Positions 5,902 through 14,650 of a DNA stretch of 64,000 bases are shown in pieces. Location: the NCBI GenBank assembly GCA_964538435.1, contig CAZIDX010000006.1, positions 11,923 to 75,922 of the forward strand. The letters are read 5' to 3'. Numbering within the stretch: position 1 is the first letter of the stretch; each line of letters begins with the position of its first letter. A program made the position numbers and the translations under genes. The DNA is from an uncultured Gammaproteobacteria bacterium (GTDB taxonomy: Bacteria > Patescibacteriota > Patescibacteriia > UBA9934 > GWF2-40-263). Below the pieces are notes generated by a model that searched no databases, was not told the origin of the DNA, and saw only the letters and a program-made list of their open reading frames with translations.

Positions 5902-6189
5902 ACGCGGCTGAGTATAGCCGAGAAAGCCCGCTGTGTCGAGATTGGGAATGGAGAAACTCTTGGATTGAAACCTGTTCGCAAGAGATAAAAAGTGACTCAA
6001 AACTCTCACCATGGTGAGGGATTTGAGTCACTTTGCCTTAATCAGCCTTTAAATTCTTTGATTTTCTTTGACTTTAGAACGCTCGACTTTTTTCAGACAA
6101 AATAAAAACCTCGGCACAAGCGGATGCACCCAGGGGAGAAACTGTTCTTGTTTTTAGGGTACGTGCACCTTGACCGCCTGTCAAGTCAT

Positions 6190-6230
6190 GAGAAAAGCCC
6201 ACCATCTAGGCGGGCTGCGTGAAGCTTGAT
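6190..6230. repeat. Terminator-promoter module, family member 1 (GAAAAGCCC-hairpin-GCGTGAAGCTTGA)
   Basis: Hairpin gcccgcc/ggtgggc followed by TTTTC in minus orientation, with a TTGACA box just beyond. Shares its flank sequence with the copies at 8350, 10269, 36985 and 50839. Confidence 0.5.
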
Positions 6231-6233
6231 ACG

Positions 6234-7379
6234 TCAGAGCTTTCTGATCTGTTCGAGCATCTTTTTCATTCTGTGCTCGAACGGGATGTTTTGCGGTGTG
6301 TTGGTGAACACCAGATACTCCCCAAAGTGATCACGTTTGATCACAGATTCGAGGCGAGCGACCTTTTGTCGAGCTGACCATTGCACTTTGAGTACGTCAG
6401 CGATCTGATCTGGGCGCAGGTGACGCTTGTGCAGGAACCGCCGCGCATCTTCATCCCCTTGGACACGAACCACGATGACGCGGTTGTTGACCAGACCCAT
6501 CATGTCCATCTCAACGAGCTGAGCCCACTCGAGAATCGCGACTCCGCGCAACCCCTTGAGCCTTGCTCGGAGCAGGCGCATGACATGTGGCTTGGTGATC
6601 TCTTCGAGCTGAGCGCGACGCTCGTCTGCCTGGGCTGAGCCAAACAGTCGTTGGCGCATGAGCGCTCGGTCAAGCACGTCATCCACGAGCACGTCCGCAC
6701 CCAGAAGCTCTGCGATGCGCTGCCTGGCCAACTTGGCGCCATGTGTCTGCTCGGCATAGAGATCGTGCACGAGCTTATCCACGTTGATGTGAGTGCCGCC
6801 CAGTTGCGAAGCTAGGCGCTCGGCCACGTAGCTCTTGCCAGTTGCGATGCCGCCAGTGATACCGATCAGGGTGAGGTTATGGATCCGCTGCTCGAGCGCA
6901 ACCTTGACGTGCAAGGGAACGAACTCAGACACATCGATCCCGATCTCTACAAAGCCTTTGACCTGGCTTGAGGAGACGTACTTGAGCTCCTGGCGGGCAG
7001 GGATGTACTCGACGCAGTCCCCATACCCCTGAAGGACCATGTTGTTGAGACCCTTCTGCTCTTCCTCGTAACCCTCATCGACATCGTTTCGCACGCCACG
7101 GAAGACCACATCGATCCCCAGACGCAGGAACTCGTCCACGAGCAGGCCGCTTGAGGAGATGACGAAGATACCAAACTCATCCTTGAGAGCTTCGGCAGCC
7201 ATATGCATGCGCTCATCGAGTGTGAACATGTAGCGACCGATCTTGGTCTCGCTGTTCATGATGACCACAAAGAGGGTCTTGCAGCGCGCCTTGGCCTTGC
7301 GGATCACATCGATATGACCGTTGGTGATGGGGTCGCCGCTGATGGGCACCATTCCTCTCTCGAACGTGAACGTGGGCAT
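6234..7379 (-). CDS. Bifunctional phosphopantetheine adenylyltransferase / dephospho-CoA kinase (CoaD-CoaE fusion)
   Basis: N-terminal PPAT signature ISGDPITNGHIDVIRKA. C-terminal half has the DPCK P-loop IGITGGIATGKSYVAERLA. Start set to ATG at 7379, preceded by GGGAGG. About 58% GC. Confidence 0.8.
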   Translation of the reverse strand: MPTFTFERGMVPISGDPITNGHIDVIRKAKARCKTLFVVIMNSETKIGRYMFTLDERMHMAAEALKDEFGIFVISSSGLLVDEFLRLGIDVVFRGVRNDVDEGYEEEQKGLNNMVLQGYGDCVEYIPARQELKYVSSSQVKGFVEIGIDVSEFVPLHVKVALEQRIHNLTLIGITGGIATGKSYVAERLASQLGGTHINVDKLVHDLYAEQTHGAKLARQRIAELLGADVLVDDVLDRALMRQRLFGSAQADERRAQLEEITKPHVMRLLRARLKGLRGVAILEWAQLVEMDMMGLVNNRVIVVRVQGDEDARRFLHKRHLRPDQIADVLKVQWSARQKVARLESVIKRDHFGEYLVFTNTPQNIPFEHRMKKMLEQIRKL

Positions 7380-7460
7380 TTCGCCTCCCAAGGTTTTGAG
7401 TTCACCAGATCGGGAGCATAGGCCAAAAAGACAGTTTTGTCAATAGAAATACTCCGGTTT

Positions 7461-8270
7461 TTAGCCGGAGTCGTTGAGGAGATCCTTCTGGGGAACACGA
7501 GGACTTCTCATGAGCGAGGGAAAACGCTCGGTGATGCGCAGTTGCTTCGCAATCTTCTGGTGGCTGATCGAGGCAACCTCACCCAAGATCTCTTTGTCGA
7601 CCTCGGCGACGATTGCGATCACCTGCTCGTACAGCGCTTTTGAGATCACATTGTTTGACTTGCATCCGCCGAGCATGACGGAGATAAAGTTGATACCTCC
7701 ATCTGTTCGCCTCTGGAGCGTGAGCTTGTGTGGGATACTTGCTGCCTTGTCCCAAACAAGAACAGGGGCATCCTCGATCTTTTGCTCGTCTTTGATCTCG
7801 AAGCTATGATCAAAATCGATGAAGAGCGGCTCGATGCGATGCGAGCTCCAAACCTTGCGCTTGAGGTAGTCGAGGAAGGCGAAGCGGAGCGCTTTACGCA
7901 CAAAGACATCGAGTTCTTCTTGGGTGGGAAAGCCTTCCATCACGCGGCGGAGGCCATCAACTTCCTGAAGGAGGTTTCTCTGAATGAATGCTACAGGCAC
8001 ACCCAAGGTTGGTGCGGGCGTCTCTTGCGCGTGCGAGACTTCGACTTGACCGCCCTCACCCACCTGGAAGAGGTACTCCCCTTCACCGAGCCCAGGCAGG
8101 AGTCCATTGTACATGAATCCGATGAGCCATCTCCACTGCTCGAGCTCCATGGGAGCCGAGCACTCGAAGTGCTGCTTGACCTGCTCTTCTTCGGTGTAGC
8201 AGGAGATACGAAACCAGAACTCGAGCTGGTCGACATCGAACGGAGGTCCGAAGTTCACGTCCTTGGACAT
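7461..8270 (-). CDS. Hypothetical protein, paralog family member A1 (269 aa)
   Basis: Paralog of 9433..10188. Shared blocks include FxVDQLEFWF, RFECSxPM, NGxLPGLGxGEY, ALRFAFLDYLxRxVWSxHRIEPLF and KLTLxRRxDGGIxxxSVMLxGCKS. Has its own promoter and terminator. Confidence 0.6.
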   Translation of the reverse strand: MSKDVNFGPPFDVDQLEFWFRISCYTEEEQVKQHFECSAPMELEQWRWLIGFMYNGLLPGLGEGEYLFQVGEGGQVEVSHAQETPAPTLGVPVAFIQRNLLQEVDGLRRVMEGFPTQEELDVFVRKALRFAFLDYLKRKVWSSHRIEPLFIDFDHSFEIKDEQKIEDAPVLVWDKAASIPHKLTLQRRTDGGINFISVMLGGCKSNNVISKALYEQVIAIVAEVDKEILGEVASISHQKIAKQLRITERFPSLMRSPRVPQKDLLNDSG

Positions 8271-8310
8271 GAATCACTTGATTCCTTTATGGCACTTGGT
8301 CGCTGCCGGG

Positions 8311-8327
8311 GCCATATCCGGGAATAA
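8311..8327 (-). promoter_or_regulatory. Conserved quasi-palindromic motif CCCGGATATGGCCCCGG just downstream of the A1 promoter (candidate operator)
   Basis: One of four near-identical copies, all about 45 nt upstream of the start codon of an A or B gene. Confidence 0.5.
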
Positions 8328-13071: not shown

Positions 13072-13082
13072 TTTTGCGTTGT

Positions 13083-13159
13083 GGGCCCATAGCTCAGTTG
13101 GCTAGAGCGCTTGCATGGCATGCAAGAGGTCGAGGGTTCGAGTCCCTCTGGGTCCACCA
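13083..13159 (+). tRNA. tRNA-Ala (anticodon GGC), CCA encoded
   Basis: Cloverleaf folds cleanly. G3:U70 Ala identity pair. Anticodon loop AUGGCAU. T-loop TTCGAGT. Followed by a terminator hairpin. Confidence 0.9.
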
Positions 13160-13170
13160 TGCAAATAAGA

Positions 13171-13195
13171 AACAACCGTTTTGGCGGTTGTTTTT
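13171..13195 (+). terminator. Terminator after tRNA-Ala
   Basis: aacaaccg-tttt-ggcggttg followed by TTTTT. Confidence 0.55.
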
Positions 13196-13277
13196 GGTTA
13201 TCCCCTTGACGGGAATCTGTTTTGTGAGCAAAGTCCGTAATTAAGGGAACGGCACCTTTTGGAGAAGGGCGGACCGG

Positions 13278-14444
13278 ATGGCGCAAAAGCCGGTTGTTGT
13301 TTACATCGAAGACACGCATGGCACCATGGGGCTTGGCAACTTCGAGCAAGAGGCACTTCGCGTGTTCCTGGAAAAGGATCGTGAATGCAATGTGCACTGC
13401 TACAGCGGTTTCTGGGGGTTCGAGGATGACCTCGACCAATTCAGGAAGTATGCAAAGCATGGACTCCTGGTCCTCGTGATTGTGGCGCAGGAAAAATACT
13501 CGGATGAGCAACACACAAGAGCACTGGAGACTGTTCGCCAACATCTTGGCAAGCAGATTCCAGTGGTTGTTATTCCTGACGGGTACAGGGATCGCTTCAA
13601 GGGCACGGATGATGCGTTCGTGTACGCACATGATCACACAGACCCTGAGTTCGCCGAGCTCATCGACGCAACCCTCAAGGCCTGGACACCTCCTGTGGAC
13701 TGGTTGGGTGCTGACACACCTGCTGATAGAGCCAGGCTCGGACGTCAGCTGCGTCGATCGTATCGCGCGAACCACCCGGATGATGAGCGTGCGGTCGCTG
13801 TGGGTGATCACAACCACATGACGGTTGCTCAGGCGCTGCGTATCCGTATGCTCCCTTCGGCGTGCCTGAAGTCCGAGTTCGAAGACTCGCTGGAGCGCAA
13901 GACTCGCAGGTTCGATTCTGCGGATTCTGGAGTGTACGAGTGCGAAGTCGAGATCGTTCGCTCTATGACTGACGAGGAGCGCACACGCTTTGATGAATCA
14001 CTCTCAATTGCGCGAGGACACATTTCTCAACGTGGGGGCGGCATCAAAGTTGCAAGCGTGAGCTGTGGCAGTGATGTCAATGGGTATGCGATTGATCCTG
14101 AAACCCTGGAGACACGTGTTACCTATGGTTTTGGTGAACATCACAAGGTCAAGAAGCTCCTGTCGTACCGTGTGCACAGGATCCTGGCGTGGCGCAAGAA
14201 AAAGCACTACTTTGACATGGAGGATGACGAAACCGATGACAGAGTCACTGAGGCGCGGATTCGCGCCCGCTTCCTCAATGGACTCATCTTCACCAAAATC
14301 CGCGGCTTTGAGACACCGATCGTTCAGCTTTGGACCAACTGCGCCAGCACGGAGCAGATCAACCGGGCCATCACGCATATTTTCCGTGAGCGTAAGTTCA
14401 TTCCAGTGGACTGCTACGGAAAACTCTACGAACCCTCTGCCTAA
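13278..14444 (+). CDS. Hypothetical protein (388 aa), GC-rich
   Basis: RBS GGAGAAGG precedes the start. No recognised domain. The minus-strand ORF 12996..13817 that overlaps it also overlaps the tRNA and is rejected. Confidence 0.55.
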   Translation: MAQKPVVVYIEDTHGTMGLGNFEQEALRVFLEKDRECNVHCYSGFWGFEDDLDQFRKYAKHGLLVLVIVAQEKYSDEQHTRALETVRQHLGKQIPVVVIPDGYRDRFKGTDDAFVYAHDHTDPEFAELIDATLKAWTPPVDWLGADTPADRARLGRQLRRSYRANHPDDERAVAVGDHNHMTVAQALRIRMLPSACLKSEFEDSLERKTRRFDSADSGVYECEVEIVRSMTDEERTRFDESLSIARGHISQRGGGIKVASVSCGSDVNGYAIDPETLETRVTYGFGEHHKVKKLLSYRVHRILAWRKKKHYFDMEDDETDDRVTEARIRARFLNGLIFTKIRGFETPIVQLWTNCASTEQINRAITHIFRERKFIPVDCYGKLYEPSA

Positions 14445-14597
14445 CGGTGGTGGGTTTTCTAATCCCGACGTTTCCTTCCTTCCGGCAGGCAGTCGGGATG
14501 AATAGCATGCTTTTTGTAAAACACTCGTATTCAACTCGTGTTTTCTAAACCTTGTAATTTTCCTTTTTGCTAATATTGGCGTTTTTTTCAAACAAAA

Positions 14598-14650
14598 CAC
14601 GACACAAATTCTCACCGGGGTGAGTTTTTGTGTCGTGCTGTTTTGTTTTA
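14598..14650. terminator. Strong bidirectional terminator between convergent genes
   Basis: 11-bp perfect outer stem (cacgacacaaa/tttgtgtcgtg) with a nested 6-bp stem, T-rich on both sides. Confidence 0.6.

Follow-up and report, generated by a model that had tools for sequence, protein, structure and literature searches.

Hot spots, or regions of genomic plasticity, are variable accessory-gene loci between conserved core genes, and islands linked to tRNA genes include pathogenicity islands and integrative elements. The eukaryotic coenzyme A (CoA) synthase COASY is a bifunctional enzyme with phosphopantetheine adenylyltransferase (PPAT) and dephospho-CoA kinase (DPCK) activities. We compared these systems to a GC-rich block at positions 6013-14600 (hereafter the island) of a 64,000-nucleotide stretch of contig CAZIDX010000006.1 (the window), from an Uhrbacteria-like bacterium of the candidate phyla radiation (CPR) with a tiny genome. 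The island lies between ychF and a gene for a membrane protein with tetratricopeptide repeats (TPR), and carries a CoaD-CoaE fusion gene (coaDE), tRNA-Ala and six uncharacterised genes. In the initial annotation it was taken as horizontally acquired DNA that had recombined at the tRNA. Our analysis indicates that the island is probably an old cluster of lineage-specific genes, passed on vertically at a variable site, with a GC excess that reflects a persistent second codon-usage class. The genes of the island and its flanks are given below, with GC content at third codon positions (GC3), the ratio of nonsynonymous to synonymous divergence (dN/dS) and identity to the sister locus L082 where relevant.

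4825-5901, minus strand: ychF, the conserved left flank; Pfam YchF-GTPase_C and MMR_HSR1; GC3 0.53.
6234-7379, minus strand: coaDE, a PPAT/DPCK fusion of 381 residues; Pfam CTP_transf_like and CoaE; GC3 0.72.
7461-8270, minus strand: A1, A/B family, 269 residues; 50% identical to A2, with dN/dS against A2 of 0.17.
8432-9298, minus strand: B1, A/B family, 288 residues; 66% identical to the outside homologue P0032 and 25% to B2.
9433-10188, minus strand: A2, A/B family, 251 residues; full-length identity to B2 of 24%.
10314-11105, minus strand: B2, A/B family, 263 residues; 61% identical to L082 7787-8608; dN/dS 0.28.
11284-12753, plus strand: P489, an acidic membrane protein with a single pass and a C-terminal ectodomain rich in Cys; divergent from the A/B-coaDE genes.
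12832-13018, no strand: inverted-repeat element of 187 bp from a repeat search, with 33-nt arms that are 94% complementary and a 121-nt AT-rich centre.
13083-13159, plus strand: tRNA-Ala(GGC), inside the block between P489 and P388.
13278-14444, plus strand: P388, an orphan protein of the cytoplasm; identity to the L082 orthologue ~61%; dN/dS 0.17.
14648-17236, minus strand: TPR862, a membrane protein with C-terminal TPR repeats (Pfam TPR), the conserved right flank; 85% identical to L082.

The informative relatives were YchF-anchored loci from metagenomes. A further 80 loci anchored on CoaDE, from species-representative genomes, were too distant and had no synteny in common with the window. 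The YchF-anchored loci, with the identity of their YchF to that of the window, are arranged as follows.

L082, 88%: Big2512, TPR862, P388, tRNA-Ala(GGC), P489, B2, CoaDE, YchF, methyltransferase (MTase), S6, SSB, EpmA, EF-P.
L085, 76%: P489, CoaDE, YchF.
L083, L086 and L088, 72-78%: different orphan genes upstream of ychF.
L091, 66%: an IS66-family transposase (56-988 region) and tRNA-Ala(GGC) adjoining ychF.
L089, L090 and L092, 62-64%: the TPR-protein gene abuts ychF, an empty site.

The island is present in the sister locus L082 and partly in L085, and is missing only in the outgroups at 62-64% YchF identity. That the segment is inserted relative to distant relatives was borne out by the direct contact between the TPR-protein gene and ychF in L089, L090 and L092, and L090 also keeps the wider synteny (TPR862/Big2512; YchF, MTase, S6, SSB, EpmA, EF-P). 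The cargo of L083, L086 and L088 is GC-rich throughout (GC3 up to 0.96), save for the L088 gene directly beside ychF, and coaDE was not found beside ychF in several relatives. In the YchF tree the window pairs with L082 and the empty-site genomes fall outside. Together, the empty outgroups, the differing cargo and this tree indicate a variable site that was filled in the ingroup and has been remodelled since. Relative to L082, the window has three extra A/B paralogues (positions 7445-10277, with A1, B1 and A2, have no counterpart there), two small palindromes and one inverted-repeat element; particular to L082 are a TspO gene and a small insertion at the tRNA.

Both hallmarks of a hot spot, conserved flanks and cargo that differs or is lacking, are found at the TPR862-ychF site, and the site further resembles hot spots in having some empty sites, lineage-specific genes and an atypical composition. 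It differs from them in that the cargo is GC-richer rather than AT-richer, includes the core-metabolism gene coaDE, has no mobility genes and has maintained its composition stably over a synonymous divergence (dS) of ~1.

Comparison of the window and L082 dates the island. The DNA of both flanks is ~81% identical, and that of the island, where it can be aligned, 67-74%. Seven backbone genes have dS of 0.56-1.33, and the values for the coaD part (0.78) and B2 (1.02) are of the same level; those of P489 and P388 (~1.9) are saturated. The CoaDE tree has a single clade for the window, L082, L085, P0002 and P0003, and this clade nests among Uhrbacteria-type sequences. Thus, the backbone-level dS and the agreement of the CoaDE and YchF trees place the block in the common ancestor, from which it co-diverged with the genome. 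A recent horizontal acquisition is contradicted by the same evidence, since L082 has the block including the tRNA. The island proteins diverge 3-5 times more than those of the backbone (CoaDE is 61% identical to the sister copy, versus 88% for YchF), with dN/dS of 0.17-0.32 versus 0.05-0.15. These ratios argue that the island proteins are real and under relaxed yet purifying selection.

The GC excess of the island is concentrated at third codon positions. Island genes have GC contents at first, second and third positions (GC1, GC2, GC3) of ~0.63, ~0.38 and ~0.67, with GC2 hardly different from elsewhere. The seven genes have GC3 of 0.72, 0.69, 0.72, 0.58, 0.79, 0.60 and 0.62, compared to 0.39-0.55 for most non-island genes of the window, and seven high-GC3 genes in a row are non-random (permutation p=0.004). 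Eight further genes, scattered through the rest of the window and all orphans, have GC3 of 0.59-0.81, so the backbone, which had been described as ~48-50% GC, is not uniform. Heterogeneity elsewhere, named in the initial annotation as something that would speak against an island, is thus in part present within the 64 kb. Relative synonymous codon usage (RSCU) in the island has a correlation of r=0.89 with that of the eight other genes, a value somewhat inflated by their selection on GC3, and of r=0.42 with the backbone; the island and the eight genes each give ~0.3-0.4 against the backbone. A Pfam domain is found in one of 15 high-GC3 genes versus 20 of 25 low-GC3 genes (Fisher p=7.5e-6). The tetranucleotide z-scores of island and backbone correlate at 0.49, compared to 0.57 +/- 0.07 (range 0.43-0.69) for equally sized backbone chunks, and the island signature is within the native range. 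The codon usage of the island thus differs from that of the backbone, but eight scattered genes share it.

Comparison of four-fold degenerate sites at conserved amino acids indicates that the two classes are stable. Backbone sites have A 0.36-0.38, C 0.26-0.27, G 0.12-0.17 and T 0.20-0.24, whereas island sites have A 0.11-0.12, C 0.36-0.39, G 0.25-0.28 and T 0.23-0.25. The composition of each class is equal in the window and L082, though site identity is just 47-54%. Thus, the contrast between A-ending and C/G-ending codons is stationary in both lineages, with T unchanged. GC3 in the window and L082 is 0.76 and 0.83 for CoaD, 0.79 and 0.75 for B2 (the sole A/B member with an orthologue in L082), 0.60 and 0.60 for P489, and 0.62 and 0.56 for P388, against 0.41-0.54 for the backbone; in L085 it is 0.68 for CoaDE and 0.41 for YchF. 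Among 11 orthologue pairs, higher GC3 goes with lower protein identity to L082 (Spearman rho -0.69, p=0.019). However, an orphan between EF-P and recA (window 2-547, plus strand; L082 15457-16128) is 82% identical between the two genomes and has GC3 of 0.70 in the window, 0.64 in L082 and ~0.65 in L083. This gene is conserved yet GC-rich, so high GC3 is not merely a by-product of fast evolution.

The island is milder and less sharply bounded than had been described. It has 54.4% GC, not 57-60%, versus 48.9% elsewhere in the window, and 500-bp windows at 0.58-0.62 GC are isolated ones only. The excess is nonetheless real: among all 8.6-kb stretches of the window, for which the maximum is 54.7%, positions 6013-14600 are near the top. 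A likelihood fit with two change points over positions 1-30000 placed the best GC segment at 6400-12780, with 56.0% GC between flanks of 49.2% and 49.3%. The left GC edge therefore falls inside the 3' part of coaDE and not at 6013. On the right, the main drop is at the P489 stop, and P388 forms a smaller second block of 54.5% GC beyond the AT-rich spacer surrounding tRNA-Ala. The borders claimed at the two ends are accordingly displaced on the left and split on the right.

We propose that the cluster is a long-resident one in a clade of Uhrbacteria-like CPR bacteria, where it would occupy the site between the TPR membrane-protein gene and ychF. The original insertions would be older than the ancestor shared by the window, L082 and L085, and would not have used tRNA-Ala as an attachment site. 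The GC excess would then date no transfer. It would reflect a second codon regime, found in about one third of the window genes and nearly all of them orphans, which avoids the A-ending codons favoured by the backbone and appears to have the same stationary composition in both sisters. Between the window and L082, the differences are gene-sized and smaller insertions and deletions. On this reading, the locus urges care when islands in CPR genomes are called by composition, as the GC and codon anomaly here would mark an old vertical gene class.

Several points weigh against this proposal. The trees are neighbour-joining trees that carry no support values, and dS of ~1-2 is near saturation, with the Nei-Gojobori estimates (NG86) biased by skewed composition. 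The data amount to 64 kb for this genome and 21 kb for its sister, so that "genome-wide" is an extrapolation. The empty outgroup sites could stem from deletion and not from insertion in the ingroup, and the orthology of the L090 TPR862 is drawn from 28% identity plus conserved neighbours. An ancient transfer from a GC-richer relative could, though unlikely, be where the cargo came from, as relatives with 55-65% GC exist and the L083 gene at the site reaches GC3 0.96. Finally, both palindromes of the window lie exactly at the two edges of the island, a coincidence that is unexplained if they are unrelated to it.

A broader version of the proposal is possible, and we offer it tentatively. The clade may keep two stable codon regimes, in which conserved annotatable genes favour A-ending codons while about one third of genes hold GC3 of 0.6-0.8 over dS ~1. 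These high-GC3 genes, clade-restricted orphans plus coaDE, could form a flexible pool of single-gene cassettes, which would turn over between terminator/promoter hairpins and via small insertions at tRNA genes. The A/B genes would be a new copy-variable family, with 0, 1, at least 3, or 4 copies at the locus in relatives and possibly a host-interaction or immunity-like role. Of all features of the locus, this rare family and its two lasting codon regimes merit further study.

An ancient horizontal transfer from a GC-richer donor, such as an Uhrbacteria-like bacterium of 55-65% GC, would leave a GC3 signature of the donor that has not decayed. The empty outgroup sites fit such a transfer, as do the different GC-rich cargo at the same site in relatives, the traces of recombination at tRNA genes in the clade, and the GC1, GC2 and GC3 of the island, which resemble those of relatives of 55-58% GC such as L090 and L003. 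We nevertheless regard it as unlikely. Both lineages have the same composition after dS of ~0.8-1.0 and at 47-53% four-fold identity, and a rough two-state decay estimate suggests that coaD and B2 would have needed a starting GC3 of at least 1.0. The exchange of A for C and G at constant T is not predicted by a donor-GC model, the tetranucleotides are native, and CoaDE falls among Uhrbacteria-type sequences.

GC-biased gene conversion at a recombination hot spot, which would raise and maintain local GC3, fits the coincidence of high GC3 with loci that vary between relatives and its parallel retention in sister genomes. Such conversion should lower A and T alike, but A is down three-fold and T is unchanged. 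In addition, the intergenic spacers within the island are not GC-rich (only 0.44-0.49), and the well-conserved orphan beside EF-P has the same GC3. We judge this explanation to be improbable.

A recently acquired island that integrated at tRNA-Ala and brought coaDE along would account for the atypical GC and codon usage, for the tRNA and inverted repeat inside the block and for the palindromes at both edges. The tRNA lies within an atypically composed block of uncharacterised genes, as in tRNA-linked islands. Unlike in those islands, it is internal, between P489 and P388, and not at a boundary. Four of five features of a tRNA-targeted island are lacking here, namely an integrase, a direct repeat, a boundary tRNA and sporadic presence. 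No integrase, recombinase, phage or defence match was found in the island open reading frames (ORFs), the nearest tyrosine recombinase being at 51785-52711. A search of the window for the 25-nt 3' end of tRNA-Ala, with up to 3 mismatches, gave a single occurrence, so that there is no direct repeat. The whole block with its tRNA is present in L082 at backbone-level dS, where the palindromes and the inverted repeat are missing, and the CoaDE phylogeny follows that of YchF. Recombination at the tRNA thus finds no support, and this explanation is very improbable.

An assembly or binning chimera with a GC-richer organism, suggested by the metagenome-assembled contig and by GC shifts at gene boundaries, has a negligible probability, as independent Logan assemblies of SRR8146440 span 5990-13131 and ~13102-14950, right junction included, and L082, from an unrelated metagenome, has both junctions in the same order. 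The ends of the Logan contigs were considered as evidence of strain variation and rejected, because 5990 lies in a palindrome and ~13102-13131 in the tRNA anticodon stem.

The palindromes at the edges, which the initial annotation had assigned to a dispersed terminator-promoter repeat family, are the following.

5989-6034, no strand: left-edge palindrome with a CTCACC-NN-GGTGAG apex; folds with z=-5.7.
14590-14648, no strand: right-edge palindrome with the same CTCACC-NN-GGTGAG apex; folds with z=-6.8.

The apex sequence occurs twice in the window, both times as a hairpin apex at an island edge. The left copy is inside ~250 bp that are not present in L082 and L085, and the right copy lies between the convergent P388 and TPR-protein genes, where L082 has a different terminator. 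A third copy, 94% similar, was found in L085 between ychF and the methyltransferase gene, which brings the known copies to three. The palindromes are not present at either orthologous L082 site, and were found neither at the outgroup empty sites nor in viral-contig scans. We rejected them as attachment sites, since L082 has the island without them and the outgroup empty sites lack them as well. Their absence from L082, and that of the inverted repeat, means that both arrived after the island. They resemble repetitive extragenic palindromic (REP)-like elements in forming strong intergenic hairpins with a near-identical copy elsewhere in L085, but differ in that three copies are known. The palindromes are thus best read, from their distribution, as a small dispersed element gained in the lineage of the window and not as scars of island insertion. 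The claimed coincidence of edges and repeats stands insofar as related palindromes lie at both edges, but the window has two copies only and L082 has none.

Next, we analysed the product of coaDE. The N-terminal domain matches a nucleotidyltransferase (PF01467, 3e-11) with the TxGH motif as DPITNGH, and scores 88 bits against TIGR01510, under the equivalog cut-off of 103. The C-terminal domain matches a dephospho-CoA kinase (PF01121, 7e-23) with the P-loop GITGGIATGKS, and scores 73.3 bits against TIGR00152, over the cut-off of 65.55. Both domains and motifs of the annotated fusion were thereby confirmed, and the protein is predicted to supply the last two steps of CoA synthesis. With an N-terminal TxGH nucleotidyltransferase and a C-terminal P-loop kinase in one ORF, it shares the layout of PPAT/DPCK fusions. 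The best named relative is from Candidatus Uhrbacteria, and 165 loci with CoaD-CoaE fusions were found across CPR, DPANN, Lentisphaerae, Verrucomicrobia and other groups. By its domains and motifs we assign CoaDE to these widespread prokaryotic PPAT/DPCK fusions, which are analogous to eukaryotic COASY. Given how common fusions are, a CoA gene inside the island is not the oddity it was thought to be, and coaDE simply belongs to the fast-evolving high-GC3 class. The CoaDE of this clade does differ from other fusions in its fast evolution, its high-GC3 codon class and its variable locus. The last two steps of CoA synthesis would thus be encoded in a fast-evolving, variable part of the genome, which bears on the stability of cofactor salvage in reduced organisms. 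Our literature searches found no paper on CPR CoaDE fusions or on the phenomenon described here.

The GC3 of coaDE also exceeds that of its neighbours in other Uhrbacteria (0.38 vs 0.29 +/- 0.05 in L002; 0.81 vs 0.70 +/- 0.11 in L003), and is about average in the more distant Moranbacteria-type or unclassified loci L006, L010 and L013. The coaDE of L082 (8707-9917) is frameshifted just past the kinase P-loop (HINVDRL, then a new frame), which is either a pseudogene or an assembly error. The NCBI gene call for CoaDE (P0001; window 6234-7391) has 322 residues, 84% of the ORF, and would by its position miss the N-terminal TxGH nucleotidyltransferase motif; the Logan call has 381 residues.

The left side of the island, between coaDE and ychF, has two regulatory features.

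5911-5939, minus strand: promoter-like site of ychF, TCGACA-17-TATACT, from a motif search.
6196-6216, minus strand: terminator-like hairpin 3' of coaDE, with a similar hairpin after coaDE in L082 and L085.

The ychF ORF extends to 6012, and its true start is the Met at 5901 that is shared by the orthologues. The sequence TCTCGACA...TATACT is also found upstream of ychF in L082 and L085.

None of the six island proteins other than CoaDE had a match in Pfam, NCBIfam, PHROG or PADLOC, in agreement with the annotation of these genes as unannotatable. By sequence similarity, A1, B1, A2 and B2 are four homologous members of a very rare family. A full HMMER scan found 8 cluster representatives of the family among 1.84 billion clusters. 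Outside the window, P0032 was the one homologue from a word-indexed search, which yielded no further A/B homologue when repeated with a broader alignment; the HMMER scan added five more distant ones. A scan of metagenome DNA with the B1/P0032 alignment gave no match. P0032 comes from a Joint Genome Institute (JGI) metagenome contig that carries tandem genes of 282, 275 and 273 residues, and P0035 and P0034, two more members of the family, are probably its neighbours, judging from gene size alone. Neither a signal peptide nor a hydrophobic helix was predicted for A1, A2, B1 and B2. A profile search of the PDB with the A/B family gave no match. Two AlphaFold2 models were poor (pLDDT 47 and 56), and the best Foldseek hit against the PDB had E=0.49. 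We likewise place the A/B family, P489 and P388 in no described family, as judged from these searches.

The intergenic regions of the coaDE-A/B genes contain the following elements.

7443-7415, 9386-9358, 10275-10247 and 11192-11164, minus strand: four promoter-like sites, TTGACA-17-TAnnnT, upstream of coaDE, B1, A2 and B2.
7471-7451 and 10304-10283, minus strand: two terminator-like hairpins, each 7 nt upstream of one promoter-like site.
8350-8410, no strand: intergenic module of 61 nt with a hairpin and TTGACA, 84% identical to 50839-50899.

No TTGACA-17-TAnnnT site was found upstream of A1. Four of these five genes, coaDE, B1, A2 and B2, have promoter-like sites of their own and thus appear to be transcribed separately. 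The intergenic modules are themselves duplicated (repeats D1, D8 and D13), and the copy of the 8350-8410 module at 50839-50899 adjoins another GC-rich orphan gene.

P489 has a pI of 4.3, 20% Asp plus Glu, a hydrophobic helix near residue 339 and 10 Cys, six of which are in the C-terminal ectodomain. It is the acidic Cys-rich membrane protein of the initial annotation, whose charge and Cys content we confirmed, and it has a single pass. Homologues are found at the same site in L082, L085 and L086. The tRNA-Ala and the inverted repeat next to it are likewise as annotated, and the tRNA has the same place in L082 and adjoins ychF in L091. The 187-bp element resembles miniature inverted-repeat transposable elements (MITEs) in its 33-nt terminal inverted repeats. 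However, a search of the window and of the loci retrieved at that stage gave a single copy, it is absent from L082, and it has no visible target-site duplication, with differing flanks of GGTGTTCAGG and TTCCGGCCCC. The terminal repeats are therefore real but the label of a MITE is not justified.

In L082 a TspO/MBR gene (5400-5990; Pfam 6.8e-52, GC3 0.45) lies between tRNA-Ala and P388. It is placed between two inverted copies of one terminator hairpin, where the window has just one hairpin and lacks TspO, which indicates a one-gene insertion or deletion bounded by hairpins.

The cargo of other relatives includes a 333-residue orphan with GC3 of 0.96 (L083 104-1105), a 10-kb GC-rich block with a 742-residue protein that has a sub-threshold LXG-domain match (L086 1-9889), and a BNR-repeat protein with a sub-threshold match to the Tli3 immunity protein (L088 4003-6443). 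On the right flank of the window, two very large proteins of 2512 and 1154 residues, probably located at the surface, follow the TPR-protein gene (17468-28474). The smaller has fibronectin-III, carboxypeptidase-regulatory-like and weak phage tail-fibre N-terminal domains.

Finally, we noted signs of insertion at or near tRNA genes. Going downstream from tRNA-His (44021-44095, minus strand), the structures within 43856-44053 are a terminator, an inverted T-arm fragment, a double-hairpin element of 56 nt, 15 nt duplicated from the tRNA 3' end (TTGGTCGCCCCA) and then another terminator. This region looks like an insertion scar at the 3' end of tRNA-His, beside the GC-rich orphans at 41860-43655. 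The same 56-nt element is found in L082 (6045-6200, minus strand), where it lies upstream of tRNA-Ala(GGC). On one side it has 17 nt duplicated from the tRNA-Ala 5' end, which directly follow the conserved promoter of the tRNA, and on the other side the complete tRNA. The two copies have the same orientation relative to their tRNA, and a viral-contig scan had no copy. In the region 50408-52711, the tyrosine recombinase (51785-52711; Phage_integrase and SAM_1 domains) adjoins tRNA-Arg(TCT) (51668-51743), with two GC-rich orphan genes (GC3 0.59 and 0.81) beside them.

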